From an uncultured Pirellulales bacterium (GTDB taxonomy: Bacteria; Planctomycetota; Phycisphaerae; Sedimentisphaerales; Anaerobacaceae), in NCBI GenBank assembly GCA_964395535.1, contig CAYNDE010000001.1, positions 1 to 44,342 on the forward strand: a stretch of 44,342 nucleotides of DNA. Direction: 5' to 3'. Shown in pieces: positions 818-30,567 of the stretch; position 1 is the first letter of the stretch, and every line of letters begins with the position of its first letter. A program made the translations under genes and the position numbers. The notes under the pieces were generated by a model that made no database searches, was not told where the DNA came from, and saw only the letters and a program-made list of their open reading frames with translations.

Positions 818-3800
818 TCAGTCCTCTTCGAGGATTTTAATAGGATCCATAGGTTTCGGTTTTATACCCGGCCAGTCCTCGTATTCCTGCATCTCTTTCT
901 CATAATTTTCGAATCTAGCCCTGTTTTGTTTGGATATTTTAATTATATCCGATTCTTCAGTTATTTCAGACGCTGGTCTTAAGATGTTGGCTTTAACAAA
1001 AACGTAAAGACGGTTCTGCGTATCGGTATTAGAAACATTTCTAAACAGACCACCAATAAGCGGAATATCTCCGAGGATAGGTACCTTTGTTCCGCCTTTA
1101 AGCTGGTTCAACTTTTCAAGCCCGCCCAAAATTATTGTTCTCTGGTTCGGAACTGTTATTACGGTTTGTACATTGCTTGTCAGCAGATCCGGGGGTGTCG
1201 GTCCTTTTAGCGTACTGCCCTGAACATCAAGATTATAATCATCTCTCGGTCTAAAGTCAGTTCTGGTCATTGTAATTTCAAGTCTGAGCAAATCACCCTC
1301 GCTGATATGAGGTGTAATATCGAGTTTGATCTCAGCAGTATATTCTCTGGTACTTACATCTAAAGTTGCAGTTGCAGTTGAACCGGCTACGCCGGGGATC
1401 ACAGTCGTCTTTGGTGAAACAATTGTCTGGGTCTCCGTTGTGTTTATTGTGCCCATTTCGTTGTCGTTAACCAGAAGTTTTGGCTTTGCCAATATTCTTC
1501 CATAATTCTTTTTATCCATAGCTTCAAATATCGCCTGAATATGATCATCGGCATAGAAGGCTTTTCCTCCTGCATCTCTAACTGAACTTGCTTCCCACAT
1601 TCTCCTTCCGGGATCTGTCGCAAGAAGGCTTACAGGAGTTAAAGTTCCGGTTCCAAGCACTTTTGTGATAGTCGGGTATTTTGTTATCAAATCCAGATCA
1701 AGTGTGAAGTCATCGTTTTTACTTATTTCAACTAAGGTGACATCTATTAAGACCTGCGGTCTTCTTTTGTCGAGTTGTCTTATGAGAGATTCAATCCACT
1801 GCTGATTTTTCTTGCTTGCATAAACGATTATCGAGAAGGTGTTTTTGTCGGCGAGGATAGTGATATCCTCCTCAGTCTTTCTGGTGGTTTCCGTACTCAC
1901 CACTTTGCCGGTCGGGTCTTTTCTCTCTATGGTCTGCTCGATAAGCTGATTCAAGACGGTGGCGAGCTCTTCGGGGTCCTGGTTTTCGAGAGGATAGACG
2001 ACATAGTTAATGGCAGCCTCTTCGGGCTGGGCATCGACAAAACCTATTATCATAGCAATCTGTGCGTGCTGCTCGACGGTGGCATTAACGAGAAGTGAAT
2101 TGGTCGATTCTATAATGACGACCTGGGGCTCTTCTATTAGTGGCTCCTGCTCGGAAGAAGCACCGGACACCTCAGCCGTGATTCTGCCGCTTGGAGGTGT
2201 GCCTGCGGGGGGTTCTATTCTGCCGGGAGCCGTTCTGCCAGTAGTTGTTGTTCCTTGGGTACGAGTTGTTGACCTTGTTCGGCCTGCAGCGGGAGCTGAA
2301 CTGATAATCCCGAGCTCCTGCAATTTACTTGTTACCTCGGCTGCATCTACATTTTGAATTTCGTACAGCCGCAGAGAGCGAACATCCTGCTGCTGAACAT
2401 CAAGAGTATCAATAAGGCTTTCAACTGTGTCAAGCTGTTCCGCCAGGCCAATCATAAGAATGCGGTTTGTTCTTTCATCAACATCAAGATAAACAGACCC
2501 CGGTTCGGCGGCGGTTCTGGCAGCAGGTGTGGTAGTCGGGCGTCCGGCGCGGGCTTCACGGGCTACCCGCGCTCTGTAGGCGGCTGTTGACTCACCCTGC
2601 CTCCTCGGGCTGGGAGCAGTCGGCTGCGCCGCGGCAGCTCCTACAGTAATCGATACAGTCCCAAGCTGGTCTGCGAGCGACTTGATTTTGTCCTTAAGGG
2701 TGGTGGCCATTGTGTATTTCAATTGTCTGAATCGAAATTCTTTTTCCGGTCCTGGTATATCAACCAAACTGAGCAATTGTGCGATACGAGGCATTCTGTA
2801 GGCGTAGCCGGTAACAATAAGCAAGCCTGCTTCAGAAGCAGAGGTATTAATATCTTCGCCGAGATTCATACCAACGAGAAGGTTCTTGGCGTTTTCGGCG
2901 TCAATGTAGTTGAGCTCAAAGATACGCGTTACGATAACGTCACCGACACGAACCTCGCCTTTTCCAGACTCGATAATTACAGGGTCAATATCCTTTGCCT
3001 GGGCCTTCGGGGCTATAATCACAAGATTATCTCCGGTTCGGGTCATTACGAGACCCTTGTACTTAAGGACGGCCTCGACGAGGGGATACAATTCTTTAAT
3101 GCGAATCTGGCCTCTGTTTTTTCCACTAAGCTTGAGTGTTACCTCACCCTGGACCTGGGCCGGGTCGTACATATAATTGATATTTAAGTATTCGCCGGCG
3201 AGTCCCAGCAGGTCGACGATTTTCAGCTTTTCAGGCACTTCTATGGTGAGCTGTTCATTGCTGTCGATTACAGGCTCCGGCTGATAGGAGCGGATTTGCT
3301 CTATCTGCTCCGCATCTGACGGCCGAGGCTCATTCTGGTCCGGGATTTTTTGTTCCACCGCCGTTGCGATTTTTTCAGGCTGCTGTAGTTCTCCCGGCCT
3401 TTGGATTATTTGTTCCTCTTCCTCGACAGCCAGTTTATTTGGCTCATTTACTTCGGCCAAGCCGCTTTCGTTTATATCTGCCACCAGAAACTCATTAATA
3501 TCAATACCTTCTATTTCATTTACACCCGCAATCTCAGAGAGTAGATTTATATCAGGAATTCTTATCTCGTTAGAACCAGGTTTTTTGAGCTCATTAGCAT
3601 CAACGTCAGTCCTATGTTCCGGCATTGTCGGCTGGTTCGTATCGGCAGGCAAATTAGCGTCGATTTGATATTCTTGTACAGGCGGCAGAGCTTCGGTTAT
3701 GACTTTTTCTATTGGGCTGAATTTACCAATAGGAGCTATAATCACCAGCTTTTCTTCCTGCCGGTCGATAATAGCTTTGGGCCCAACTCCAGCAGGAGGC

Positions 3801-4252
3801 TCAGATAAACTACCTATCAGAATATCACCTATTCGGGAAGCTATTTCTTCATTCGTGGGCACATCATTAAAATCCGGAGGTATCGAGATTGATCTAATTA
3901 CAAACTTATCTTCGGCGTCGACGATCTTTACAAGCTGACCCGCCTTTGTAAGTTCCGGCCGCTGGCCTGTCATAGAAAACATATCTTCTCTAAGAATCTG
4001 GACTTCAACATCTATGCCGGCTAAATCGAGATATTTCTCTGCCTGCTCAGCGGATATACGTTTCAGGTTAAAAACTCTGTACCTCGGAGGTTCCGGGAGA
4101 TGTTTTTCCGCTGAGGTTCGCTCGTTTGCGATACTAATGCCGTCATCGAAAAAAAACGCAAAGAAGGCAAGTATAACAACCATAACCTTCAGCCAAAACA
4201 ACCTGTGAAGGCTATCTTTATCATTTTTATTCAAAATCATAGATGGCTCCAT
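818..4252 (-). CDS. gspD: Secretin (GspD/PilQ family), unusually long (1144 aa), with low-complexity linkers
   Basis: C-terminal secretin signature GGTKVPILGDIPLIGGLFRNVSNTDTQNRLYVFVKANIL. Hydrophobic N-terminus LFWLKVMVVILAFFAFFF (signal or anchor). Flanked by a GspC-like gene and gspE. The second ATG at 4240 (MILNKND...) has a GGAG 6 nt upstream and may be the true start. Confidence 0.85.
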   Translation of the reverse strand: MEPSMILNKNDKDSLHRLFWLKVMVVILAFFAFFFDDGISIANERTSAEKHLPEPPRYRVFNLKRISAEQAEKYLDLAGIDVEVQILREDMFSMTGQRPELTKAGQLVKIVDAEDKFVIRSISIPPDFNDVPTNEEIASRIGDILIGSLSEPPAGVGPKAIIDRQEEKLVIIAPIGKFSPIEKVITEALPPVQEYQIDANLPADTNQPTMPEHRTDVDANELKKPGSNEIRIPDINLLSEIAGVNEIEGIDINEFLVADINESGLAEVNEPNKLAVEEEEQIIQRPGELQQPEKIATAVEQKIPDQNEPRPSDAEQIEQIRSYQPEPVIDSNEQLTIEVPEKLKIVDLLGLAGEYLNINYMYDPAQVQGEVTLKLSGKNRGQIRIKELYPLVEAVLKYKGLVMTRTGDNLVIIAPKAQAKDIDPVIIESGKGEVRVGDVIVTRIFELNYIDAENAKNLLVGMNLGEDINTSASEAGLLIVTGYAYRMPRIAQLLSLVDIPGPEKEFRFRQLKYTMATTLKDKIKSLADQLGTVSITVGAAAAQPTAPSPRRQGESTAAYRARVAREARAGRPTTTPAARTAAEPGSVYLDVDERTNRILMIGLAEQLDTVESLIDTLDVQQQDVRSLRLYEIQNVDAAEVTSKLQELGIISSAPAAGRTRSTTRTQGTTTTGRTAPGRIEPPAGTPPSGRITAEVSGASSEQEPLIEEPQVVIIESTNSLLVNATVEQHAQIAMIIGFVDAQPEEAAINYVVYPLENQDPEELATVLNQLIEQTIERKDPTGKVVSTETTRKTEEDITILADKNTFSIIVYASKKNQQWIESLIRQLDKRRPQVLIDVTLVEISKNDDFTLDLDLITKYPTITKVLGTGTLTPVSLLATDPGRRMWEASSVRDAGGKAFYADDHIQAIFEAMDKKNYGRILAKPKLLVNDNEMGTINTTETQTIVSPKTTVIPGVAGSTATATLDVSTREYTAEIKLDITPHISEGDLLRLEITMTRTDFRPRDDYNLDVQGSTLKGPTPPDLLTSNVQTVITVPNQRTIILGGLEKLNQLKGGTKVPILGDIPLIGGLFRNVSNTDTQNRLYVFVKANILRPASEITEESDIIKISKQNRARFENYEKEMQEYEDWPGIKPKPMDPIKILEED

Positions 4253-4570
4253 AAGCTACGTACAGAGCGCATAACTATTAAGTGCCGCTCCATAATTGCA
4301 TTTATCGGGCACCTTGGCCTGTAACTGTTGCAGAACCCATTTGCGGGATATTTTAAGCCCGCTTTCATATGACACTCCAAAGCATTAATAAAGGATAAAA
4401 TCACCTTATTTATAAGACATAAAAAGCGGCTAAAAGTTCCCATTTTTCGTTCAAAAACGGCCGATAAAGCGACCGAAAATAACGAAAGTACAAGCATTAC
4501 AAATACTTAGCTTTTGAGAGGATTTTGTTTGGAGCTCCTGGTAAAGGAGCAGGATACGTTCTTATATTGG

Positions 4571-5569
4571 TTACCTCAGGACCGGTGGTCTTCTTCTTGG
4601 GCTTGCGGGGGCCTTATTTACCTTCGGCTGATTTGGGTCCTTTTTCTCGCTGTCCAACTTCTTGCCGAGGTCGTCAAGCTTTTGTGCTTCTTTTCCGCCT
4701 ATCCTCATATTTTCAAGCTCTGAGAAATACTTTTCCATTAAGGCGTCAGTTTCCATAAAGCTTTTTTCCCGCGAGGCCTCATCTTCGAAGGGTCCGGCTA
4801 AAATACCATCAAGCTCCTCAATAAACTTATCAAAAATTTCCTGTTCTTCAGCACTTATTACCGGCTCCGAACTCTGCTGGTTTCGAACTGACTCGTCAGA
4901 CCTTTTTGCGGCAGAAATCCGTTCTTCGATTAAAGCTTCCCTCTCAAATCCAATACCATTGGTTAAAACAGGGGAGCTATCAGTTGGGAGTTTTGACGCA
5001 CCCGTGGTTGACTTTCCAACAACAAGAGAAGTTTCAACAGGCCTTGCAACCATATCAAGTGGATAAGTCCTTGCGCCATCGTTAATAATAACAGAACCTT
5101 CCTTTATTTCTTTTATAATCAGGTGACCAACAACATCAGACGGTCTTACCCATCTTCGGTCCCCGCCGGGTGCGTCAATCAAGGCGACCGACAGGGCCGG
5201 ATTTGATTCGTGTACACAGGTGGCAATAAGATTAAACTTAGCAGTTCTGGATACCGATTGAACAGGGGGCAAGGCCGCTGTTTTTCTCGGGGCCGGCGGT
5301 TTTACTATTTCGGCTTTCGGTTCCGGTTTTGGAGGATTAAGATATTCGGCAAAATCTTCAGCCTCTTTTACAAGCGGAGGTTTCTGGTCGGTGTCTTTTT
5401 TTGCTCTCTCGCCTCGATTCTTTTTAAATCTTTCTACGACGCTTTGAACGTCATAAGATTTTTTGTTTTTTGCACCGCTGTTATTTGCTCCCAAGACTAC
5501 AGGCAGAGCTACAATAATAACAACCAGCAAAGCTGTCAGAATACTTGCTATTCTAACGGTTTTTATCAT
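4571..5569 (-). CDS. Membrane-anchored GspC/PilP-like protein (no PDZ domain recognised)
   Basis: N-terminal TM segment IASILTALLVVIIVALPVVLG. The central segment FNLIATCVHESNPALSVALIDAPGGDRRWVRPSDVVGHLIIKEIKEGSVIINDG resembles the GspC HR / PilP beta-domain pattern. It sits immediately upstream of the secretin. Assigned from pattern recall and synteny only. Confidence 0.45.
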   Translation of the reverse strand: MIKTVRIASILTALLVVIIVALPVVLGANNSGAKNKKSYDVQSVVERFKKNRGERAKKDTDQKPPLVKEAEDFAEYLNPPKPEPKAEIVKPPAPRKTAALPPVQSVSRTAKFNLIATCVHESNPALSVALIDAPGGDRRWVRPSDVVGHLIIKEIKEGSVIINDGARTYPLDMVARPVETSLVVGKSTTGASKLPTDSSPVLTNGIGFEREALIEERISAAKRSDESVRNQQSSEPVISAEEQEIFDKFIEELDGILAGPFEDEASREKSFMETDALMEKYFSELENMRIGGKEAQKLDDLGKKLDSEKKDPNQPKVNKAPASPRRRPPVLR

Positions 5570-5966
5570 CTTTTTATCTCATCAACAAGTGAGCATAGTC
5601 ATATCAAAAAAAGCTTACAAGCCGCCTATAAATTATGTCGGCCTCTAATATTAAGACGTTATCGGCAATATTTTGTTCCCTCCCAACGGATATTTTCTCA
5701 AAATAATTTATGACATCAGAGGCTGTTATACGAATAGTCAAGGCTTTTCGTGTCCGAATTATTCCTCCAGGATAATAATGATTCAGAACTTATATAACAG
5801 CTTATTTTCGCGCAAATTCGTTTAGCACCGATAAAAGCTGTTTTTATGCAGTCAGGCCGACCTGGATTAAAAGCTAAGTTTAATCACCGCCTGCGCCACA
5901 TATTCGTCTGTTTCGTAACAACGAGACAAAACTGGCAGGCTTTCACTAAAAAGGTTATTATATTTT

Positions 5967-7118
5967 TCAACTTCCTTCATAAAAGCCGCGACAGGCGACT
6001 TTAAGCTGCTTACCGCCTTTGATTGCAACAATCAAGTTATCCTGAAAAGACCTTTCTTTTCTCCCTAATTCAGGCGGATCTATCTGTAATTTAAGCTTAT
6101 AACTGCCTTTATCTACTTTTTCGCTGCTGAGTACCTTCACAAAACCTTTTTCGGAGGAAAATGACTCGATATCAAAATCCCCATTATAGTTATCCGTCAC
6201 CCAGACGTCTTCTTTTATTACTGTTTTTCCGGGCTGAGCCTTGAAAACAAGAATAACAGCCGGTCGGCTCGAAAATTCCGCCGGTGCGCTATAACTGATA
6301 GTAAGCAGACTGCAATCGGGGTGGTCGAGATAAACCCGCACGTGACCGCTCAAGTTCTGTTCGAGCTTCTCCATATCCACCTGCGGCTTGAGAACAAATT
6401 CAGTTGCCTTTTCATTCGGGTCGAAGTCTGCAACTATGATATCAAGATTCGATTTAAATTGTGCTATAGAAAATTGTTTTCCATCAAGACTTCGAATCTT
6501 GATTTCAGGGCAACCGGCGTTTTCTTGTTTAAGTGACAGGCTAATCGTTTCCGGTTCGTAATCGATTACTTTTTTGACAGATGCTTGTACCGTGAGTGTA
6601 ACGCTCGGGTTCTTTTTATCGTTACTCAAGACATATAAATTTTTCTTTATGGGGACTGATGCAACACCGGCCTTTAAACTAACATCAATTTCGCCGCTTT
6701 CGCCGGGAGCATACTTTTTCTTGGCGAGTTTGGCCACGGTACAACCACAGGTGGACCTGATATTTTTGATTTCGAGGACACCGCCGCCAATATTTGTAAA
6801 CTTAAATTTGCATTCACTACTCGACTTCGGAGATACCTGTCCGAAATCGTGCATTTTAGATACGAATTTGATTTCCGGCCCCGAGCTTTTGGATTCGGCT
6901 TGAACTGTTTTCTCAGGCTCTTTTACCGACACACTTTCAGGCATTTTTTCAACAGGTGTTTTTCCTTCAGCAGAGAGCTTTTGACTTTCCAACAATTTTG
7001 CTGCATCCGGCTTTGCCTCAGTTGTTCTTTGTTGTGGACTCTGCTCTTCGCAGCCGCCGAAGACAAAAACTAAGGAAAAAACAACTAAAATGCACAAAGT
7101 AAAATATAAGCATTTCAT
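5967..7118 (-). CDS. DUF1573-type lipoprotein
   Basis: Lipobox-like VFGGC after a hydrophobic signal. FKFTNIGGGVLEIKNIRSTCGCTVAKL matches the DUF1573 hallmark (F.F.N.G...L.I.....CGCT). AGGAG lies about 8 nt upstream of the ATG. Confidence 0.6.
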   Translation of the reverse strand: MKCLYFTLCILVVFSLVFVFGGCEEQSPQQRTTEAKPDAAKLLESQKLSAEGKTPVEKMPESVSVKEPEKTVQAESKSSGPEIKFVSKMHDFGQVSPKSSSECKFKFTNIGGGVLEIKNIRSTCGCTVAKLAKKKYAPGESGEIDVSLKAGVASVPIKKNLYVLSNDKKNPSVTLTVQASVKKVIDYEPETISLSLKQENAGCPEIKIRSLDGKQFSIAQFKSNLDIIVADFDPNEKATEFVLKPQVDMEKLEQNLSGHVRVYLDHPDCSLLTISYSAPAEFSSRPAVILVFKAQPGKTVIKEDVWVTDNYNGDFDIESFSSEKGFVKVLSSEKVDKGSYKLKLQIDPPELGRKERSFQDNLIVAIKGGKQLKVACRGFYEGS

Positions 7119-7318
7119 ACTGCTAACTCCTAATTTAACCAGATAAGCTTTTTTCAGTTAAACAATTAATTATAGCAAATAATTTATATTAAGCAATACT
7201 TTTTTGCTCTCAAAATCCCCTTCTGCGGCGGTAATAGGACCTATTCAAAAGCAGGAAGCACATTTTTTTATACTCGGCGAAAAGTGTAAAGGTTTTACAA
7301 AAAATTTACTTACTTACT

Positions 7319-7348
7319 GCCAACCATCAGGCTACTATAGACGTCTAA
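7319..7348 (+). promoter_or_regulatory. Candidate ECF-type (autoregulated) promoter: CCAACC-N16/17-CGTCTAA
   Basis: AAC at 7322-7324 and CGTC at 7342-7345 are separated by 17 nt. The site is about 30 nt upstream of the sigma gene ATG (7375), which has a GGAGCAGG RBS. This resembles the generic GAAC-N16-17-CGT ECF promoter architecture. Single occurrence, judged by eye. Confidence 0.3.
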
Positions 7349-7374
7349 AGAATTAACTGGAGCAGGCAGCCTTA

Positions 7375-7962
7375 ATGGAGATTACAGACAACAGCTTAAT
7401 AGAAGCCCATAATCTGGGAGAGAGTGATGCTTTTGAGCAAATCGTACGCCGGTACGGTCCGGCTTTGTTGGGATATATTATCAAGATGAGCGGCAGCAGA
7501 GAAAAAGCAGAAGACTATTTTCAACAAACCTTTATGAAAGTTTATGAAAAGGCGAATACGTTTCGGCAGGGAAATTTCAAGTCCTGGCTTTTCACCATAG
7601 CAACAAACGTCGTTATGGACGGCTTTCGACGTCAAAAAAGAGCGCCGGCCTTATCGCTAAACGAGATGATTAAAACGGCAAACTCCGATGGCGAAGAATT
7701 TGGAGCGGTTGTTATAGCAGATAATACGAATAATCCTTTTGAAAATGCAGCGCAGGCTGAGCTGGCTGAAAAACTGCGAGGAGCCATAGTCTCGCTGCCG
7801 GCAGGACAGAGAACAGCTCTTGTGCTGAGCTATTATCAGCAGATGAGTTATTCACAGGTAGCAAAAGTGCTGGGCTGCTCGATTGGAACCGTCAAGAAAC
7901 AAATGTATAGAGCATTGAAGAGGCTGGCCGATAAACTACCAGAGCAGCGGAAAATTTTATGA
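7375..7962 (+). CDS. ECF-subfamily sigma-70 factor
   Basis: 195 aa. Region 2 (FEQIVRRYGPALLGYI..., FKSWLFTIATNVVMDGFRR) and the region 4 HTH (SYSQVAKVLGCSIGTVKKQMYRALKRL) are both present. The stop overlaps the next start (ATGA at 7959-7962). Confidence 0.9.
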   Translation: MEITDNSLIEAHNLGESDAFEQIVRRYGPALLGYIIKMSGSREKAEDYFQQTFMKVYEKANTFRQGNFKSWLFTIATNVVMDGFRRQKRAPALSLNEMIKTANSDGEEFGAVVIADNTNNPFENAAQAELAEKLRGAIVSLPAGQRTALVLSYYQQMSYSQVAKVLGCSIGTVKKQMYRALKRLADKLPEQRKIL

Positions 7963-9785
7963 AGAAAAATCATCTGACAGAAAAAGACCTTATTGAATAT
8001 CAATTCAAGTTAGCTTCGCAAGAGCAGATTGCAGAGGCTGCTGAACATCTTAAAGAGTGCGAAAAATGCCGGCAACTCAATGAACGGCTGGCTGCTAAAT
8101 TTTCTTCGCTGGAGCTGCTGCGTGAAGAACCGCAACTAAACGAAGAGCTGGTTTCCAGAGTGCTTGAGAGTATCAAGACATCCCGCCAAACGAAACTGAA
8201 ATTAAAGACGTTTAAGATACCTGCATGGATAGGTGCAGCAGCTGCGGTCCTGCTCGTAGCATCGCTGCTGGTGGTTTCGGAAATCAAGGAACAGAGAAGA
8301 AGCAAATTAATAGAAGGCCTGAGGACAGATGAGCCTAAATCAACAGAAAAGTATGCTTATGACAGCAGAGAAACCGCGACTGAACGTGAGAGCGAAATCA
8401 GGGGGGAATCAGAAGAATTGGGACGCCGTCTCATTGCCGGCGACCGAATAGTATCAAGACAAGAAGATGAGGAGCCGCCATTTGCACCGGCCAGTGCTAT
8501 TGAGCTGGTAACACTGCCGAGAAGAGAAAGTGTTCAAACTACTATTTACAATTCTGCGGACCTGACACTTGTTCGCGAGAGACGCAATCTTACGCTAAAG
8601 AAAGGCTGGAACTGGCTGCAGTTTATGTGGGCAAATACTTTGATTGACCCGACGAGCCTTAATCTGGAGCCGCTCGAAGAAAAAGAAAAAATCGAGATTG
8701 AGCAGCTTGTATTCCCGCCTCGATTAAAAGAGGTCGGCAGATGGCTCATACATTCCGAAGTCGAAGGGCAGGTACCGTTCGAGATAACTTATTTTACCTC
8801 GGGATTAAGCTGGCGGGCATTTTATATGGGGACATTAACCGAAGATGAAAAAACGATGCGGCTCGAAGGCTACGTGCGGGTGACAAATAACAGCGGCGAA
8901 GATTACGAAAATGCCCAAACACGGCTGATAGTCGGAACGGTGCATATGCTCGACGAGATAGCCGAGCTTGCCAGACGACAATGGCCTTATGGCCGGCCGG
9001 GAGAACTTCTACCTTTATCTTCACATGAAAAAGAAGAACTTAGTCAAATGCGAGGGGTTGCGGTACAACAATATTATAGTTTATCTATAACAAAAGACGA
9101 ATTGAGACAAAAAGTAATCACAAAGGAAGGCCTGAGCGAGTATTTTCTTTACACGATTGAGGGGATAGAAACGATAGAAACCGGCTGGTCAAAAAGGCTG
9201 GTAAGTTTCACAGCAGATGATGTGCCGGTTGTTAATCTTTATAAATATGAGCAGCAGCGATACGGCAATTCGGTTATAAGATTTCTAAGTTTTAAAAATG
9301 ATGAAAAGCACAAGCTCGGCGAAACACCAATACCCGGAGGGACGCTGAAGGTTTACCGCAGTGTCGATGATGCGGGGCACTTATCATATACAGGACAATC
9401 AGCCTTCAAATACATACCCATAGACGAGGAAGTCGAACTAAATCTCGGGCCCGTAGAAAATGTTGTTGTTGAGCCGATACTTATGGAGTTTTCAACGGAA
9501 AACTTCAAATTTGATAGTAAAGGCAATATTGCCGGCTGGGACGAGGTGCGAACGTATAATATCGAAGTTCGCAATACGAGAGACATACCTGTTAAGGTCG
9601 AGATTAAAAGAAACTTTGCGAGCCAATACTGGGATATCACCAAGAAAGGCGATTTTGACAGTTTCGAGAAGGAGGATTTGGATACGGTCAAGTTTACAGT
9701 CGAGCTTAAGCCGGAAACAAAAAAGGAGTTCGAATATACACTCAGGACTTACCACGGTATCCGGCAGCAAGACTGGAATAATTGA
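7959..9785 (+). CDS. Transmembrane anti-sigma factor: zf-HC2 (ZAS) domain, one TM helix, acidic linker, and a large extracytoplasmic DUF4139/DUF4140-like domain
   Basis: Translationally coupled to the ECF sigma gene. H-x3-C-x2-C motif HLKECEKC at residues 30-37. TM helix IPAWIGAAAAVLLVASLLVVS. Residues from about 182 to 608 are roughly 75 percent identical to the free-standing protein at 12388-13734 (for example VTLPRRESVQTTIYNSADLTLVRERRNLTLKKG versus VTLPGRDTVQLTIYNSADMTLVRESRALTLKEG). The DUF4139 call is from memory of that family's pattern. Confidence 0.7.
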   Translation: MKKNHLTEKDLIEYQFKLASQEQIAEAAEHLKECEKCRQLNERLAAKFSSLELLREEPQLNEELVSRVLESIKTSRQTKLKLKTFKIPAWIGAAAAVLLVASLLVVSEIKEQRRSKLIEGLRTDEPKSTEKYAYDSRETATERESEIRGESEELGRRLIAGDRIVSRQEDEEPPFAPASAIELVTLPRRESVQTTIYNSADLTLVRERRNLTLKKGWNWLQFMWANTLIDPTSLNLEPLEEKEKIEIEQLVFPPRLKEVGRWLIHSEVEGQVPFEITYFTSGLSWRAFYMGTLTEDEKTMRLEGYVRVTNNSGEDYENAQTRLIVGTVHMLDEIAELARRQWPYGRPGELLPLSSHEKEELSQMRGVAVQQYYSLSITKDELRQKVITKEGLSEYFLYTIEGIETIETGWSKRLVSFTADDVPVVNLYKYEQQRYGNSVIRFLSFKNDEKHKLGETPIPGGTLKVYRSVDDAGHLSYTGQSAFKYIPIDEEVELNLGPVENVVVEPILMEFSTENFKFDSKGNIAGWDEVRTYNIEVRNTRDIPVKVEIKRNFASQYWDITKKGDFDSFEKEDLDTVKFTVELKPETKKEFEYTLRTYHGIRQQDWNN

Positions 9786-9821
9786 GTATATGAATACGAA
9801 GGGTAAATTAAGAAGATAGAA

Positions 9822-11129
9822 ATGAAAAGTTCAGCAATAATTATTTTTATCTCGATGTTTTGCACTCTTGTTTTTGCTGATGAGCAGGTTTATCGGCTGG
9901 ATAATACCGTTGTAACATACGAAGGTATTGAGCAGATATACGCCGAGGCAATAGGCAAAACCGCCCATGCGGCCAGAGCAATAGCGGCCGAGAAATTCGG
10001 TTTCGATATGCCGCAGACAATAAAAGTGAATATCAATTGCGACCCAAAACAACGGGTCAGATTATTCACCGACGGCCAGGACATGATGTACCTTACCATT
10101 CGCAGAGAAAGCGATTTGAAAAAGCCGCAGGAGAGCGGGATATTTCATATCTATGGGATTTGTCACGAGACAGGCCATCTGGCGATGTACCGTATTATCA
10201 TAGACCATAGCTGGATGAGCTCAGACGCAGCGGAGGGCTGGGCACATTATCTCGGCTCGAGGATAGTTGATGGTGTCTATGAAAAACATAAAGGCGAGCT
10301 CTGGCCCGACAAATATGATTACTTGGCCGACGGAACAGCGAGACTTAATAATCAGCTTGCCGACGCGAATGCGGCCGGGATAGTAAAAGGAGCAGGATTG
10401 TGGAAGGACCTTGCAGAAATAGTGGGTGACAAAGGTATTGTGGAAATTTTCAAGGCGTGGTCAAAAGCAGAAATCGACCCGGCAGACCCGGGAGCTGCGC
10501 TGCGAAAGGCACTATTGGAAACAAAAGAAGATGAGCGTCTGAACATCTGGTGGAATAGTGCCGAACCGATGCTGGTTTTCAAGAGGCCGTCAAGTGAATT
10601 CAAAACCAAAACAGCAAAACGCAATGAGCTGGCACAGGAGCCGATGGATTTATTTTTTGACGACGGCAGACAGGCAAGCAAAAGTTCAATAGCAGGCAGC
10701 GGCCACGCGGTAAAATTCAATATTCCGGGAAGCGACTGGTATCTGACATCGGTACAAATTTACGGCTCCCGATATGGTTACCCCCAGGCGCCAAAGGAAG
10801 ATTTTCATATATGGCTGTGTGATAAGGACTTCAAAACAATAGCAGATTTCCCCCAGCCGTATGCAAAATTCAACAGAGGCAATCCCAAGTGGGTAAACCT
10901 GCCGGTAGAGCCTACAAATGTTCCAACAGAATTTGTTATTTGTGTCGGATTTAATCCTACGGGTACAAAAGGCGTCTATGTCGGCTACGATGCCGAAGGC
11001 AGCGGTAATTCATTCACGGCTTTGCCCGGCGGGGAATTTAACAGCTTCAGCGAGGGTGACTGGCTAATCAGAGTGAAAGTGGACCAGCTTAAAGGCTCTG
11101 ACGCACTGAAATCATACGATAAGAAATAA
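9822..11129 (+). CDS. Secreted HExxH protein, MA-clan (Peptidase_MA_2-like) putative metallopeptidase with an uncharacterised C-terminal domain
   Basis: Signal peptide MKSSAIIIFISMFCTLVFA/DE. YGICHETGHLAMY...SSDAAEGWAHYLGS fits the HExxH ... W..EG.A.Y gluzincin pattern. The short intergenic gaps on both sides (36 and 38 bp) imply the same operon. Confidence 0.5.
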   Translation: MKSSAIIIFISMFCTLVFADEQVYRLDNTVVTYEGIEQIYAEAIGKTAHAARAIAAEKFGFDMPQTIKVNINCDPKQRVRLFTDGQDMMYLTIRRESDLKKPQESGIFHIYGICHETGHLAMYRIIIDHSWMSSDAAEGWAHYLGSRIVDGVYEKHKGELWPDKYDYLADGTARLNNQLADANAAGIVKGAGLWKDLAEIVGDKGIVEIFKAWSKAEIDPADPGAALRKALLETKEDERLNIWWNSAEPMLVFKRPSSEFKTKTAKRNELAQEPMDLFFDDGRQASKSSIAGSGHAVKFNIPGSDWYLTSVQIYGSRYGYPQAPKEDFHIWLCDKDFKTIADFPQPYAKFNRGNPKWVNLPVEPTNVPTEFVICVGFNPTGTKGVYVGYDAEGSGNSFTALPGGEFNSFSEGDWLIRVKVDQLKGSDALKSYDKK

Positions 11130-11167
11130 GTAAAGAACAATAACGATAATTGTAAGGAGAATAGATT

Positions 11168-12355
11168 ATGAAGGTTAAAAAGAAAATATTAACAATGATA
11201 TTGATTTGTCTTGTGCTCGGCGGCGTCGCACAGGCGAGGATTAAGTTAGTGGCGCTTCCCGAGCGGGCGGCGACGGTCATTCGCCTGGACAATCCGCAGG
11301 CAACACTGATAGAAGAAGAGAGAGTGCTGACGCTGCAGAAAGGAATAAATAAAGTAGATTTTTCCTGGAAGGCGGTGAGCATCGATGCCGATTCCATTCG
11401 GCTTGCCGTGCTTGACCATCCTGATAAGGTCAAACTTTTGAATGTGAGCTATCCGCCGAATGAAGCTGCGCTCGTATGGGAGATAAGCAGCGACAGTGAC
11501 TATGCCGAGCGAGTTAGGATAAGCTATCTGTTAATGAACATAGACAGGCTGATAACCTACAAGGCGATCGCAGACAAGGCTGAAACCGGTATCGATTTGA
11601 AAAGCTTTTTAGTGCTGCGGAACTTCTCAGGTGAGGATTTCGATATGGCCAAAATCCTGCTCGATTACGGCGAGGCCTTCGAGCGAGGCTTGCAGCACGA
11701 GGAAACAAAACAGCTGCTGTTTTTCGAGGCGGCAAGGGTTCCTGTTACAAAGGTATGGACATTCGATGCCGCCAAACTGCCGTGGGACCCGCAACAGCTT
11801 GAGAACCAGAATGTCGGTATTCCAGTAAGCTACCGGATATTAAACGATAAAAAGAGCGGACTGGGTGAGTTCGCACTATGGGGCGGCAAGGCAAGAATCT
11901 TCCAGGACGACGGACACGAAAGCACAATCTTTCTTGGTGAAGATGTTACAGGATTAGTGCCAGTCGGTGAAAAGACAGAGCTGTATATAGGTGACAGCAG
12001 GGATATCGTGGTTACGCAGCGAAAGATGAAAGAGCAGCAGATAAATATTAAAAGGAACAACAGTAACAACATCATACTCTACGACACCGATGAGGAGATT
12101 GTCGCGAAGATTGAAAACTTCAAGGACAGCCCCGCTGTTCTGACCGTGATAGAGCATATACCGGGACAGTGGGATATGGAAAAATGCAGTCCGGATGATT
12201 ACGTAAAAAAGGACGCCAACACGCTTGAGTTCGAGATTAAGCTGCCTGCCAGAGGCAAAGACGGCCCTGCAGTAAAAGAGATTAAGATGCAATATCAACG
12301 CAGGAATATCAGGCCCGGCGTGCAGATTCCGGATGTGCAGTTTTACGGCAGATAA
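11168..12355 (+). CDS. Secreted DUF4139/DUF4140-like protein, a distant paralog of the anti-sigma sensor domain
   Basis: Signal peptide ILICLVLGGVAQA/R. The N-terminal RIKLVALPERAATVIRLDNPQATLIEEERVLTLQKGINKVDFSW aligns by eye with the VTLP...TIYNSA...LTLK.G.N.LQFSW block of the other two copies. AAGGAG RBS. Confidence 0.5.
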   Translation: MKVKKKILTMILICLVLGGVAQARIKLVALPERAATVIRLDNPQATLIEEERVLTLQKGINKVDFSWKAVSIDADSIRLAVLDHPDKVKLLNVSYPPNEAALVWEISSDSDYAERVRISYLLMNIDRLITYKAIADKAETGIDLKSFLVLRNFSGEDFDMAKILLDYGEAFERGLQHEETKQLLFFEAARVPVTKVWTFDAAKLPWDPQQLENQNVGIPVSYRILNDKKSGLGEFALWGGKARIFQDDGHESTIFLGEDVTGLVPVGEKTELYIGDSRDIVVTQRKMKEQQINIKRNNSNNIILYDTDEEIVAKIENFKDSPAVLTVIEHIPGQWDMEKCSPDDYVKKDANTLEFEIKLPARGKDGPAVKEIKMQYQRRNIRPGVQIPDVQFYGR

Positions 12356-12387
12356 GAATGCGAAAATAAATTTTAGGAGAGATAAAA

Positions 12388-13734
12388 ATGAAACGCATAT
12401 TCATTTTATTAATAATCGCTGCAGTGGGCTGTGCTGCTTACGGCAAGGTTGATTTGGTGACACTTCCCGGCAGGGATACTGTCCAATTGACTATCTACAA
12501 TTCCGCGGATATGACGCTGGTGCGTGAAAGCAGAGCTTTGACACTTAAGGAAGGAGCCAACAAGCTGCAGTTCTCATGGGCGAATACGCTGATTGACCCT
12601 ACCAGCCTGGAGATGCTTCCGAAGGCAAATGCCGACAGAATCGATATTGCGGATTTGACCTTTCCGCCGAGAGTTACCAATCTGGGATTGTGGAACATTA
12701 AAAGCGATATCAACGGCAAGGTACCGGTTGAGATTACATATCTGACCTCAGGACTAACCTGGCGGGCGTTCTATATGGGGACATTAACCGAAGATGAGAA
12801 AACAATGCGGCTGCAGGGCTACGTGCGGGTAACAAATAACAGCGGCGAGGATTACGAGAACGCTCAGACCCGGCTGATAGTGGGCAAGGTGCATATACTC
12901 GACGAAATTGCAGAGCTTGCCAGGCGGCAGTGGCCCTACGGCCGGCCCGGAGAAATGCTCCGTGAACTCGGAGTTGAGGAGGCGAGAAGAGCAAGGGTCC
13001 AATTTGACAAAGCTGCAGGTGAAGTTATACTCTTAGGAGCACTACCGAAGGAAATGAAGGAAATCAAGAAAGAGGGATTGAGTGAGTATTTTCTTTATAC
13101 GATTGAGGGAACCGAGACCATTGAGACCGGCTGGTCGAAAAGGCTGATTAGCTTCGACGTCGACGAGGTGCCGGTTGTCAATCTTTATAAATTCGAGCAG
13201 GAGCGTTACGGCGATTCTGTCATGCGGTTTTTAAGTTTCGCAAACGATGAAAAGCACAAATTAGGCGACACGCCGATACCGGGCGGGATGCTGAAGGTTT
13301 ACCGCAGCGTCGATGCGGCAGGCCATCTTTCATATACAGGCCAATCTGCTTTTAAGTATATACCAGTTGATGAAGAAGTTGAGCTGAATCTCGGCGCTGT
13401 TGCGGATGTTGTCGTCGAGCCGAAACTGACGGACTTCAAAACAGAAAATTATGAATTTGAAAGTCCGGGCAGAAATATTTCCGGCTGGGACGAGGTTCGC
13501 ACTTATACTATCGAAGTACGCAACACGCGAGACATACCAGTTAAGGTCGAGATTAAGCGAAACTTTCCGACACAATACTGGGACATCTCGAAAAAAGGCG
13601 ATTTTGACAGGTTCGAGAAAGAAGATTTGGATACCGTCAAGTTTACCGTCGAGCTAAAGCCGGAAACGAAAAAGACATTCGAGTATACAGTAAGGACATA
13701 TCACGGCTCAAGAGAGCAGGACTGGGAACAGTGA
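12388..13734 (+). CDS. Secreted (possibly lipoprotein) DUF4139/DUF4140-like protein, a close paralog of the anti-sigma extracytoplasmic domain
   Basis: Signal sequence MKRIFILLIIAAVGCAAYG. Long stretches are identical to the 7959-9785 product (WRAFYMGTLTEDEKTMRL.GYVRVTNNSGEDYENAQTRLIVG; RNTRDIPVKVEIKRNF). AGGAGAG RBS. Confidence 0.6.
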   Translation: MKRIFILLIIAAVGCAAYGKVDLVTLPGRDTVQLTIYNSADMTLVRESRALTLKEGANKLQFSWANTLIDPTSLEMLPKANADRIDIADLTFPPRVTNLGLWNIKSDINGKVPVEITYLTSGLTWRAFYMGTLTEDEKTMRLQGYVRVTNNSGEDYENAQTRLIVGKVHILDEIAELARRQWPYGRPGEMLRELGVEEARRARVQFDKAAGEVILLGALPKEMKEIKKEGLSEYFLYTIEGTETIETGWSKRLISFDVDEVPVVNLYKFEQERYGDSVMRFLSFANDEKHKLGDTPIPGGMLKVYRSVDAAGHLSYTGQSAFKYIPVDEEVELNLGAVADVVVEPKLTDFKTENYEFESPGRNISGWDEVRTYTIEVRNTRDIPVKVEIKRNFPTQYWDISKKGDFDRFEKEDLDTVKFTVELKPETKKTFEYTVRTYHGSREQDWEQ

Positions 13735-13822
13735 GTGCGCCGGTGAAATAATAAATTTGTAACGATTTGAAGGCAAATTTGTCTTCAGCGTCCTATATTA
13801 TTGCTGGTTTAAGCAGCCTCAT

Positions 13823-13858
13823 TGCGAGCTTGAAAAAATTTTTCAATCTCGCATTTTT
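13823..13858 (+). terminator. Rho-independent terminator of the ECF operon
   Basis: TGCGAGCTTGAAAAA / TTTTTCAATCTCGCA forms a 13-bp stem with one mismatch, followed by TTTTT (13854-13858), about 90 nt after the stop at 13734. Confidence 0.6.
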
Positions 13859-14206
13859 CGTTCGGTTTCTGTTAGGGTTTTTCAGCGAGTTTTGCCGATA
13901 CAAGTATTTGCAGAAGTGATTGGCAATCTCAAATTCGGTCGAAAGGTTTTCCGATGAGGCGGTACGAAGAAGATTTTGGTGATATTCCTTTATGCAGGTT
14001 CGGCCCGGGCGGTGATTTTGTCAGCTACTGGCCAAAGGGCAGCGGCGAGAGCTACCCGGAACCTTACGAAAATAAACTGACAAAAATCATAGAACGTTTA
14101 AGCCAAATCATTTCGGGCGTCATTCAAAGCCGGCCGGATGTACAGGTAACTTTTGCCGATGCAGAGGCGACCATTTTGCAAAAAACGCACGATGAAAGGA
14201 CGATAA

Positions 14207-14863
14207 TTGCAAAAAATACAGTCAAAAAACAATCTCACTCCACGACAAATCCAGCTTCTCTGTCTGATAAAAAAGTTTCAGGACAACAACTTTTATTTGC
14301 CGACGATTGGGGAGCTGGCGAGCGAGCTGGGCATAAGCCGAAGCACAACGTTCGAACACATCGAAGAGCTTCGAAAAAAAGGGTATCTTTCAAATGGCAC
14401 AGGCAGAGCTCGCTCTTTGGAGCTGAGCTTAAAAGCGCATAAGCTGCCCGCTCTTTCAGCACAGGAAAAGTCAAATCTATCAATCCAGAAAACGGAAGGT
14501 ATCTCTCTTGCAGGCAGGGTCGCTGCGGGACTGCCAATTGAGGCAATTGAAAATAAAGAAAGTTTGTCACTCAAGAGCTGTTTCGGAAACACAGAGGAAA
14601 TATTCGCACTCGAAGTGCAGGGTGACAGTATGACAGGCGACGGGATATCCGACGGCGACTATGTGATTTGCCGCAAGAGTAGTACTGCCGACGATGGACA
14701 GCTTGTAGTAGCAATAGTTGACGGAGAAAATGCTACACTCAAAAGATTCTATAAGGAAACAAACAAAGCCAGGCTACAACCATCCAACGACGAGTATCAG
14801 CCAATTTACTCAGAGAACTGCCGTATTGAAGCCGTGGTAATAGGGCTTATAAGAAAATTGTGA
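14207..14863 (+). CDS. lexA: LexA repressor (SOS regulator, S24 autopeptidase)
   Basis: N-terminal winged HTH LTPRQIQLLCLIKKFQDNNFYLPTIGELASELGISRSTTFEHIEELRKKGYL. Cleavage-site context GRVAAGLPIEA. Catalytic VQGDSMTG and ATLKRF. The start is TTG, immediately preceded by an in-frame TAA, with AAAGGA 8 nt upstream. Confidence 0.9.
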   Translation: MQKIQSKNNLTPRQIQLLCLIKKFQDNNFYLPTIGELASELGISRSTTFEHIEELRKKGYLSNGTGRARSLELSLKAHKLPALSAQEKSNLSIQKTEGISLAGRVAAGLPIEAIENKESLSLKSCFGNTEEIFALEVQGDSMTGDGISDGDYVICRKSSTADDGQLVVAIVDGENATLKRFYKETNKARLQPSNDEYQPIYSENCRIEAVVIGLIRKL

Positions 14864-19809: not shown

Positions 19810-20799
19810 CTAAACGCTGACATGACAGAGTACAGCGAGTGCCCAGAGCAAATCATTTTTATTTACAATTTTTGTTTCGTATTTTTCATTAATAGGTATC
19901 AGGTGTACATTTTCTTCTTCCATTCTGATAAGCTTACAGGTAACTCCTATCTGGTTTTTAATATGAACAAGCCCAATCTGTCCCTGGGCCGCCGGCACTG
20001 ACGGGCTTACGATAATAATATCACCGTCATTTACTCTGGGCGACATACTGTCACCATCAACTCTCAACGCGAAGCTGTCATTAAAAATCTTATGAATCTG
20101 CTCGCACTGGACAAACTCAACTATATCATCCGATTGAGTTGAACTTATCTGAACAAGGTTAGCCTCTGATTCTTTCAGGCCGTCTATTACGGCCTCTGCC
20201 TGCAAATCTACAGATATTGTTCCATCTGCAAAACCAATAATTTTTTTACCGGTATATTTCTTAACCAGCTCGTCGAGCTCTGTAACAGCCTGCTTTGACT
20301 CCGGTATGATTTGCTGCTGCCAAAAATGAACAAGACCTGCTGCTGTCCTTCCGAGAACCGGTATCCAGGCAGGCCTTTCTTTTTTTAATTCTTGCCGGGA
20401 TTGAGAGATTCGTTCTTCAATTCCCTTTTTCTGGCTCAGAATGTCAATGAAAGCAGATATTGGCTCAATTAGTTCTGGATTGCTTGCCAATAGAGTACTT
20501 ATTTTACGCATAAGCGTATAATTACCCTGCCCTATTATATTATTTTCCGCGTATTTAGAAAATTTTTCGGTTTTTTTACCCGTTACAAGCCAGTTTAAAT
20601 CAGTATCGGTCACATTACAAATCTTAATCAATACTTCAATCGGGGGCACTCTATTAATTTCATAATAGCTGTATGTAGAAGGACTTATGCCTAAAGAGTG
20701 AGCAAACTGACTCTTTCCTCTTTCGCCCGCAAATCGCTCGCGAACCTCTCTTATACGCCCAATTATCGCATTAACGTCAAAACTGCTCATGTAATTCAC
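19810..20799 (-). CDS. XRE-family HTH fused to an S24 (LexA/CI-like) autopeptidase, with unusually long internal segments
   Basis: N-terminal HTH FAHSLGISPSTYSYYEINRVPPIEVLIKICNVTDTDLNWLVTG. LexA-like cleavage context IPVLGRTAAGLV. S24 core LRVDGDSMSPRVNDGDIIIV ... VTCKLI. The start is GTG (20799) or ATG (20790). Confidence 0.8.
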   Translation of the reverse strand: MNYMSSFDVNAIIGRIREVRERFAGERGKSQFAHSLGISPSTYSYYEINRVPPIEVLIKICNVTDTDLNWLVTGKKTEKFSKYAENNIIGQGNYTLMRKISTLLASNPELIEPISAFIDILSQKKGIEERISQSRQELKKERPAWIPVLGRTAAGLVHFWQQQIIPESKQAVTELDELVKKYTGKKIIGFADGTISVDLQAEAVIDGLKESEANLVQISSTQSDDIVEFVQCEQIHKIFNDSFALRVDGDSMSPRVNDGDIIIVSPSVPAAQGQIGLVHIKNQIGVTCKLIRMEEENVHLIPINEKYETKIVNKNDLLWALAVLCHVSV

Positions 20800-28625: not shown

Positions 28626-28721
28626 AAAAATAGAACAACGGCCGAACCTTAGAGATATGTCAAATTCGACAGACAGCCTGAAAGGGATTTGCGAGCAAAT
28701 AATTTAAAAAGGTACGCAGCC

Positions 28722-29228
28722 ATGCAATGCCAGATTTGTAATGACAATGAAGCTACAATCCACCTTACCGAGATTTCCGGCGGGGAGCGCAAGGAAATGC
28801 ACATCTGCGAATCCTGCGCCGCAGAACAGGGGATAATCGTAAAAAGTCAGATACCTATTAACGAGCTGCTGAGCGGCCTGCTCGCCTCAACCCCACCTGA
28901 AGATGAGCTTTCAGGCTCCGCAGAAACAAAACTCCAATGTCCGAGATGCGGACTTACTCTCGAAGATTTCCGAAAGGAAGCCGTGCTCGGATGCCCTTAT
29001 GACTATGAGGTTTTTGAAAAGCCGCTATCGAACCTGATTGAAAACGTCCAAAACGGTAAAACCGTACACTGCGGCAAGGTCCCGTCAAGGGCACCTGCCG
29101 ATGCGAAAAAACAAATCAAGCTGCTTAACCTGAAAAAACAGCTCGATGAGGCCGTCAAAGCAGAAAATTACGAACAGGCTGCAAAATTAAGAGACCAGAT
29201 AGAGAAAACAGAAAAGCCAAAACAATAA
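28722..29228 (+). CDS. mcsA: McsA-like protein (N-terminal CxxC zinc fingers plus C-terminal UVR motif), activator of the arginine kinase
   Basis: MQCQICNDNEATIHLTEI...MHICESCA, a second CPRCG...GCPYDY, and a C-terminal UVR-like LKKQLDEAVKAENYEQAAKLRDQI. The track start 28689 is a TTG; the ATG at 28722 gives the canonical M.C..C N-terminus. Confidence 0.8.
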   Translation: MQCQICNDNEATIHLTEISGGERKEMHICESCAAEQGIIVKSQIPINELLSGLLASTPPEDELSGSAETKLQCPRCGLTLEDFRKEAVLGCPYDYEVFEKPLSNLIENVQNGKTVHCGKVPSRAPADAKKQIKLLNLKKQLDEAVKAENYEQAAKLRDQIEKTEKPKQ

Positions 29229-29250
29229 AGGAAAAAATCAATTAGTCACT

Positions 29251-30515: not shown

Positions 30516-30567
30516 CATCTTTTAGAAGGAATTTAGTACTGACCCTTATATGCGAAAGGAATTAATT

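Follow-up and report, generated by a model that had tools for sequence, protein, structure and literature searches.

An ECF sigma factor operon of Sedimentisphaerales-type planctomycetes with a DUF4139 anti-sigma sensor domain and co-encoded secreted paralogs of that domain

Pairs of extracytoplasmic function (ECF) sigma factors and anti-sigma factors are a major mode of bacterial signalling, and the inputs of most of their extracytoplasmic sensors are unknown. Operons of the sigma-E type (rpoE-rseA-rseB-rseC and algU-mucA-mucB-mucC-mucD) are autoregulated and encode a periplasmic modulator that binds the outer domain of the anti-sigma factor and, in the case of MucD, a protease; their sigma factors are released by regulated intramembrane proteolysis. 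In the Cpx system the secreted regulon product CpxP feeds back negatively on CpxA and is titrated by stress, and in the PhyR-NepR-sigma EcfG system the cytoplasmic PhyR controls signalling by mimicking a sigma factor. In Pseudomonas aeruginosa, the ECF sigma factor SbrI (anti-sigma factor SbrR) drives muiA and is linked to envelope stress (PMC10418997, section 4.1.6; PMC7603352). Here we describe an operon found in 44,342 nt of DNA from an uncultured planctomycete (positions 1 to 44,342 of contig CAYNDE010000001.1, assembly GCA_964395535.1; this whole stretch is called the window), in which the sensor domain of an anti-sigma factor is a conserved paralog of secreted proteins that are probably induced by the same sigma factor. 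With a probability of roughly 0.45, we hypothesize that it is a chromosomal, autoregulated envelope-signalling operon of an ECF sigma factor and a ZAS (zinc-associated anti-sigma) protein, with negative feedback through paralogs of the sensor, and that it is conserved across the Phycisphaerae/Sedimentisphaerales.

Five open reading frames (ORFs) on the plus strand (7375-13734) make up the operon and encode, in order, the sigma factor, the anti-sigma factor, a secreted protein with an HExxH motif, and two secreted relatives of the sensor domain; we refer to the sensor domain as type A and to its free relatives as type B (gene 4) and type C (gene 5). The sigma and anti-sigma genes share a 4-nt ATGA overlap and the following intergenic distances are 36, 38 and 32 nt, which bears out the five tightly packed plus-strand genes reported in an earlier note on this DNA that a model had made from the sequence alone. 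That note had also called the first gene an ECF sigma factor, rightly: Sigma70_r2 (4.6e-17) and Sigma70_r4_2 (4.4e-17) of Pfam are matched above cut-off, and NCBIfam TIGR02937 (sigma70-ECF) scores 111.2 bits against a cut-off of 42.9, as befits an ECF (group 4) sigma factor, with no equivalog, subfamily or group-specific NCBIfam model above its cut-off.

The second gene, described in the earlier note as a single-pass anti-sigma factor of ZAS type, also keeps its assignment, by its conserved H-x3-C-x2-C motif and single transmembrane segment. Residues H30, C34 and C37 are conserved at 90% or more among 111 homologs, and the AlphaFold2 (AF2) model has helices at residues 8-15, 21-33, 35-52 and 62-76, with a predicted local distance difference test score (pLDDT) of ~75-90 for the first three (residues 1-50) and ~46-55 for the fourth. 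Motif, helical N-terminus and coupled, overlapping gene fit a Class I/ZAS anti-sigma factor, for which zinc binding is only predicted; NCBIfam NF052375 (antisigma) is matched at E=2.7e-7 and 30.8 bits, below its cut-off of 100, and zf-HC2 of Pfam finds no match in the protein at E<=0.1. A modelled helix at residues 90-115 coincides with the region of the transmembrane segment. The juxtamembrane linker that follows is disordered and unconstrained, which makes it a natural target for a site-1 protease, and we infer that it is the candidate site of regulated proteolysis. Among the operon proteins Pfam recognised no homolog of RseB/MucB, RseC or HtrA, and neither a FecR domain nor a TonB-dependent receptor was found in the window.

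The sensor domain belongs to a family of unknown function, DUF4139 (PF13598), which anti-sigma residues 275-597 match at E=1.7e-13 and 51.2 bits (gathering threshold 31.8). Gene 5 matches the same model at E=1.4e-14 and 54.8 bits, and is 73% identical to anti-sigma residues 176-606 over 433 aa; its own orthologs are 70-76% identical. Gene 4 is the more distant relative, 27-31% identical to both A and C in two BLASTP blocks (E=4e-15 against the anti-sigma factor, 2e-21 against gene 5); it scores 15.2 bits (E=0.017) against DUF4139, under the threshold, and lacks a ~65-aa insertion present in A and C. Some residues are nevertheless invariant in all three types, for example N-x-S-G-E-D at gene 5 positions 150-155. 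The identities confirm the earlier description of a sensor domain with two free secreted paralogs, one distant and one close, and dispose of the possibility, raised along with it, that the three domains are unrelated. The resemblance to DUF4140/DUF4139 proposed at the same time stands for DUF4139, matched by genes 2 and 5, but not for DUF4140, which gave no Pfam match at E<=0.1 in any of the three paralogs. Against TIGR02231 (MuiA) the three proteins score 35.1, 19.0 and 39.8 bits, far below the cut-off of 112.6, placing A, B and C by profile score in the wider superfamily, outside the MuiA subfamily.

Hydrophobic N-terminal segments are present in genes 3, 4 and 5, and the signal peptide of type B ends in AQA, followed by RIK. 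Gene 5 had been proposed as a possible lipoprotein, an idea we reject since a lipobox-like cysteine occurs in just 2 of 88 C-type orthologs; its signal peptide is likely of the ordinary type. The AF2 model of the A domain is rich in beta structure (beta domains mostly at pLDDT 80-96; mean of the whole anti-sigma factor, 66.7). In Foldseek searches with the DUF4139 model the best matches were to ribophorin I/Ost1 of the oligosaccharyltransferase complex (6s7o_E, E=3.9e-6; 6ezn_A, 3.8e-5; range to 1.8e-4), with M1 aminopeptidases (N-terminal domain I; ERAP/APN, ~1e-2) and AP2 mu2 (C-terminal domain) next; a sequence-profile search of the PDB with DUF4139 returned nothing relevant. As a lead at the level of the fold, this suggests that DUF4139 is a non-catalytic beta-sandwich module that binds peptides or partner proteins, and not an enzyme.

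A homolog search returned more than 7,000 relatives, many of them full-length fusions of ~600 aa at ~55% identity, from sources named as Sedimentisphaerales, Phycisphaerae or Planctomycetota. When one genome of each species was scanned, tblastn confirmed at least 572 stretches, of which 79 loci were retrieved, from Phycisphaerae/Sedimentisphaerales-type metagenome-assembled genomes (MAGs), and their ORFs were classified with hidden Markov models (HMMs) derived from the window and its relatives. The same order recurs in most of these loci: the sigma gene, the fusion of anti-sigma domain and DUF4139-A, zero to four optional genes, DUF4139-B, and one to three copies of DUF4139-C; the optional genes are absent in most loci. 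The conservation of gene neighbourhood that the earlier note had proposed as a check is thus found, and full-length anti-sigma::A fusions are kept across the clade down to ~45% identity. Related loci often share flanking SDR, ThuA-like and GFO_IDH genes, and the surroundings of the operon in the window are those of an ordinary chromosome (aspS, dnaK, yidC, mnmE, fmt, rsmB, ispG, nadE and a secretin gene). Because of these common flanks and housekeeping surroundings, the comparison suggests one orthologous locus per genome, and a multi-copy family of substrate-specific sensors is unlikely.

An ECF-type promoter is predicted directly upstream of the sigma gene. The CCAACC...CGTC promoter of the earlier note survives in substance, since 45 of 60 related loci have [C/T]CAACC-N15-17-CGT[C/T] ahead of the sigma gene, but the spacer in the window is 16 nt and not 17; the consensus of the N16 instances (40 sequences) is TGTCAACC-N16-CGTCT. 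Over 1.28 Mb, both strands included, the motif matched 46 times before sigma genes and ~30 times scattered elsewhere, and the only other class of gene that it precedes is that of solo C-type DUF4139 genes (L050, L057 and L067), where the whole promoter block of ~55 nt is reused 59-105 nt upstream of the gene. On this conservation the operon is predicted to be autoregulated, as is the function of the promoter itself; and because the promoter of the sigma operon also precedes solo C genes, the regulon probably has the C-type DUF4139 proteins as its main output. More than the -35 and -10 elements is conserved, both before sigma genes and before solo C genes (window 7290-7346; L050:1391, L057:3918, L067:5355): ~15 nt ahead of TGTCAACC there is an A/T-rich block, AAAATTTACTT, and the spacer has a conserved segment, GGCTACGATA. 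The extra block could be an UP-like element or the binding site of a second regulator.

The A domain of the window is a mosaic, with an N-terminal third of A type and a C-terminal half of C type. Identity to gene 5 at third codon positions is 0.6-0.77 within the C-type tract and 0.33-0.5 at aa 176-260; a segment profile along the domain (A-like positive, C-like negative) runs +0.26, +0.08, -0.02, -0.16, -0.11, -0.23; and the C-type HMM scores the whole domain higher than the A-type HMM does. This pattern indicates that C-to-A gene conversion produced the tract. An identity of about 75% to the close paralog had been reported before, and at 73% the figure is right for the window, but it is locally inflated by a lineage-specific conversion: in ortholog alignments the A-C identity typical of the family is ~57%. 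Of 65 loci, 7 have C-type C-terminal segments in their A domains (the window, L085, L006, L018, L042, L047 and L073), and in every one of the 65 the N-terminal third stays A-type. From this pattern we conclude that tethered sensor and secreted output can exchange the C-terminal sub-domain and that type-specific function resides in the N-terminal one.

Mean pairwise identity among 42 complete loci is 0.80 for B, 0.72 for C, 0.69 for A, 0.61 for sigma, 0.46 for the cytoplasmic anti-sigma domain and 0.20 for the linker. That the sensor domain is better conserved than the sigma factor itself speaks for a fixed partner or ligand and against a diversifying environmental signal. No other operon protein is as conserved as type B, which exceeds even sigma though Pfam barely recognises it, and which may be the functional hub of the system. 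The A type is not confined to the tethered form, since free A-type copies lacking the anti-sigma domain occur in L024, L036, L058, L061, L074, L080 and L086, either right behind the anti-sigma gene or separated from it by one or two C-type genes. A separate observation concerns L008:1-2117 (CAZBMW010000030.1; 87% DNA identity), in which homology does not set in before position 8500 of the window: neither the sigma gene nor the anti-sigma and transmembrane part is present, the DUF4139 protein (P0010, 448 aa) has a C-type signal peptide, and an unrelated 144-aa ORF lies upstream of it. Either the regulatory module was really lost by recombination between A and C, or the MAG was mis-assembled across the A/C repeat.

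The third gene of the window belongs to a variable part of the operon. Its product carries HETGH at residues 115-119 with E138 18 residues on; among 98 homologs H115, E116 and H119 never vary, and E138 is kept in at least 90%. In Foldseek searches the N-terminal part of its AF2 model (pLDDT 92.9) is matched by M1 aminopeptidases, collagenase T (4ar9) and Gentlyase (4ger) in their catalytic domains, and the C-terminal jelly-roll matches the lectin-like domain of Cwp84 and BcsB. Motif, downstream glutamate and thermolysin-like fold are those of MA(E) gluzincins, and the protein is probably a secreted metallopeptidase with catalytic activity, from a family not described before. It matches no Pfam or NCBIfam family at E<=0.1, M1 and Peptidase_MA_2 included, and has no sequence match in the PDB; the exopeptidase motif GxMEN is absent from its sequence. 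The earlier assignment to a secreted MA-clan peptidase accordingly fits as regards fold and conserved ligands, but not as regards Peptidase_MA_2. Several extracytoplasmic accessory genes are interchangeable in this operon, the HExxH gene among them. The HMMs classified the HExxH genes separately and left 34 ORFs of the optional slot unclassified; these comprise 15 triple CarboxypepD_reg proteins, 9 serpins, 7 proteins of ~535 aa with a thioredoxin-like C-terminus, one DUF2330 protein and 2 short ORFs of no family. Two of the serpins, copies of one 761-aa protein encoded by the first optional gene of L003 (9867-12152) and L004 (7774-10059), contain an inserted STN/GspD-N0-like domain, and a member of the HExxH family, P0239, has a faint STN match. 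STN is the domain by which FecA-type transducers signal to FecR anti-sigma factors, so accessory proteins that bear it might dock on the signalling complex.

The mechanism that we propose would run as follows. At rest, the ZAS domain would keep the sigma factor at the membrane, and the A domain would report the state of the B/C system, either through a complex with B and/or C or through an envelope ligand that all of them bind. Loss of that interaction would open the disordered linker to regulated proteolysis and release the sigma factor, which would transcribe the solo C genes and the operon that encodes it; B and C synthesised as a result would then restore the interaction and end the response, a negative feedback of the RseB/CpxP type acting through the paralogy of sensor and output. 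A decoy or partner-switching role of the free paralogs, as put forward in the earlier note, is a plausible hypothesis. Several points weigh against the proposed mechanism. The structure models are of single chains, and contact between A and B or C is hypothetical, as is cleavage of the linker by a site-1 protease; promoter and regulon are predicted from conservation of the motif; the TM-scores of the Foldseek matches to the DUF4139 model are low (0.12-0.16), and the anti-sigma model averages a pLDDT of 66.7. In some genomes (as in L005) the sigma/anti-sigma pair and the B-C cluster lie apart or are incomplete, so their tight coupling is not universal. The paralogy could, moreover, be simply a relic of an anti-sigma gene that arose by fusion with an adjacent C gene.

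Other explanations deserve weighing against this feedback. The earlier note had imagined a circuit centred on the peptidase, in which the HExxH protein degrades sensor domains while the free paralogs act as decoys that buffer the proteolysis. We consider it very improbable, even though in the window the gene sits between the anti-sigma factor and the paralogs, its zinc ligands are conserved on a gluzincin-like fold, and the serpins that take the same slot elsewhere hint at a protease theme. The gene is present in only five loci (the window, L005, L006, L008 and L046), at differing positions, after the paralogs in L046 and before them in L006; in most related operons it is lacking, being replaced by other genes or leaving the slot empty. 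The peptidase was rejected as a core component on this census. Members of its family, which numbers 427 at E<=0.001, are found outside sigma operons too (L007, L087 and L088), and since the gene is optional and its family not tied to such operons, degradation of sensor domains by it cannot be the general mechanism. The serpins do not rescue the idea, as their targets are serine or cysteine proteases and not metalloproteases. The accessory genes do lend themselves to a different model, in which A, B and C have a common ligand in the envelope, for instance an unfolded polypeptide, a glycan or a peptidoglycan fragment; build-up of this ligand would fire the anti-sigma factor, and the induced B and C would remove or sequester it, with no complexes between A and B or C. 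Protease, serpins and thioredoxin-like proteins have a flavour of proteostasis, the DUF4139 fold resembles peptide-binding beta-sandwich modules, the three types share invariant residues (the N-x-S-G-E-D motif among them), A and C can exchange C-terminal halves, and MuiA and SbrI respond to envelope stress (PMC10418997). We nonetheless think this model somewhat unlikely: it leaves unexplained why two free types, B and C, are constantly retained, and no DUF4139 protein has a known ligand. The sequence data do not separate it from the feedback that we favour.

Less probable still is that the arrangement is a historical by-product, in which an anti-sigma gene fused with the neighbouring C gene, A, B and C are structural or effector proteins of the envelope, and the A domain has no sensing role, the input lying elsewhere, for example in a redox-sensitive ZAS motif. 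That motif is conserved, and some ZAS anti-sigma factors, such as RsrA, do sense cytoplasmic thiol oxidation; C-B-C clusters without a fusion exist in L006, L042 and L047, as do the free A-type copies of the seven loci named above. Neglect of the A domain is hard to reconcile, however, with the retention of the full-length fusion at such low overall identity or with the domain's own mean identity of 0.69, and an N-terminal third that remains A-specific despite recurrent conversion of the rest argues, by the persistence of that signature, for a distinct function of the tethered copy. Returning to feedback by paralogs, we can sharpen it into a specific proposal of sensor/output mimicry, in which the tethered A stands in for the secreted C and competes with it for B or for a common ligand. 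This sharper form is tentative, and the odds are against it. If true, the activity of the sigma factor would be a direct readout of the product of its own regulon, by free concentration or by occupancy, as a periplasmic counterpart to the mimicry by PhyR; recurrent C-to-A conversion would keep the shared interface matched, and the operon would be the founding member of a class of ECF systems defined by sensor-output paralogy, giving DUF4139 proteins their first mechanistic role.

Table 1. Features of the operon, with positions counted from the first nucleotide of the window
Feature	Position	Strand	Remarks
Predicted ECF-type promoter	7320..7346	+	-35 CCAACC 7320-7325; 16-nt spacer; -10 CGTCT 7342-7346
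GGAG ribosome-binding site	7359-7362	+	~12 nt before start codon (family pattern)
ECF sigma factor, 195 aa	7375..7962	+	only sigma2 and sigma4 regions; Pfam and NCBIfam
Anti-sigma factor, 608 aa	7959..9785	+	ZAS domain, one transmembrane segment, linker, DUF4139 domain
Cytoplasmic anti-sigma domain, aa 1-76	7959..8186	+	ZAS motif H30-x3-C34-x2-C37
Single transmembrane helix, aa 85-111	8211..8291	+	sole hydrophobic segment of the anti-sigma factor
Disordered juxtamembrane linker, aa 112-175	8292..8483	+	rich in E, R and S; pLDDT 25-46
Extracytoplasmic DUF4139 domain of the anti-sigma factor (type A), aa 176-608, 433 aa	8484..9785	+	PF13598
C-type sequence tract in the A domain	8754..9785	+	approximate limits; interrupted by variable loop, aa ~340-385
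Secreted HExxH protein, 435 aa	9822..11129	+	gluzincin-like domain aa ~20-255; C-terminal beta-sandwich/jelly-roll aa ~270-430
Secreted DUF4139 paralog type B (gene 4), 395 aa	11168..12355	+	BLASTP, alignment
Secreted DUF4139 paralog type C (gene 5), 448 aa	12388..13734	+	PF13598 match
Putative intrinsic terminator	13823..13858	+	13-bp interrupted hairpin 13823-13853, then U5; RNA fold

At the downstream end of the operon (Table 1), the strong terminator announced in the earlier note exists as a hairpin followed by U5, but its strength is only moderate: the 71-nt segment folded there has -15.7 kcal/mol (z = -1.77), and the hairpin at 13823 is not among the results of a scan for simple consensus terminators. 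Directly beyond it lies a LexA-type repressor with an S24 peptidase domain (14207-14863, plus strand), whose start is overlapped by a probably spurious 162-aa ORF (13954-14442), and within 6 kb of the repressor is an HTH_3/CI-like protein with an S24 domain (19810-20799, minus strand). Divergently upstream, all on the minus strand, are an 1144-aa secretin with three Secretin_N domains and a Secretin domain (818-4252), a 332-aa protein without family match (4571-5569) and a secreted DUF1573/Ig-like protein (5967-7118); this envelope or secretion neighbourhood (818-7118) is not kept beside the operon in other species. Further away, at 28689-30375, a small UVR-motif protein (McsA-like) and an ATP:guanido phosphotransferase (McsB-like) form a stress module of the protein-arginine-kinase type just upstream of dnaK (30550-32496). 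A PADLOC scan of the five operon proteins gave no match at E<=0.01, and a known anti-phage defence system was rejected as an identity of the operon.

Taken singly, the components are of known kinds: an ECF sigma factor, a ZAS anti-sigma factor and a domain of unknown function. What appears to be undescribed is the fusion of DUF4139 to an anti-sigma factor, the obligatory B and C paralogs in the same operon, and gene conversion between sensor and output. The earlier note knew of no ECF group with this arrangement, and our literature search agrees with it in finding no paper that describes one or that links DUF4139 to anti-sigma factors or ECF signalling, a topic absent from all four papers found to mention the domain; the main text of the ECF re-classification paper (PMC7826278) mentions neither DUF4139 nor SbrI. 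Searches of the literature for a comparison of the Ost1 and aminopeptidase folds found none, and one on PA1494 found nothing relevant. That conversion is limited to a single sub-domain suggests a functional surface common to sensor and output, and feedback by paralogy, if true, would be a new regulatory logic for ECF systems. The operon would also offer a handle on the DUF4139/MuiA-like superfamily, which spans bacteria and eukaryotes and whose sole functional clue so far is the phenotype of Pseudomonas MuiA. The operon itself is a candidate core envelope pathway of Sedimentisphaerales-type planctomycetes from sediment and anaerobic-reactor samples.

Among described systems, SbrI/SbrR/MuiA is alike in that an ECF sigma factor has an output of the DUF4139 superfamily, MuiA, as its principal known target, just as here solo C genes carry the promoter of the operon. 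The name MuiA belongs, however, to TIGR02231, which the proteins of the window match only below cut-off, and in the window DUF4139 is fused to the anti-sigma factor and two further paralog types are predicted to be co-transcribed with it. In P. aeruginosa, muiA (PA1494) is unlinked to sbrIR, and we know of no report that SbrR carries a DUF4139 domain. Operons of the sigma-E type resemble the one described here in combining a sigma factor, a single-pass anti-sigma factor, periplasmic proteins and sometimes a protease; they differ in that the periplasmic proteins of the window are paralogs of the sensor domain, the anti-sigma factor is of ZAS type, the protease is a non-core gluzincin-like protein, and RseB/MucB is missing. 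The likeness to PhyR is conceptual only and involves no homology, since mimicry here would be extracytoplasmic, between the sensor domain and the outputs. Cpx is a two-component and not an ECF system, and CpxP is no paralog of the CpxA sensor domain. The window lacks the hallmarks of a FecI/FecR/FecA system, STN being confined to inserts in the accessory serpins that some relatives have. With the luminal domain of ribophorin I/Ost1 and domain I of M1 aminopeptidases, finally, the DUF4139 proteins share a structural likeness only, in the absence of sequence similarity and in an entirely different cellular context.

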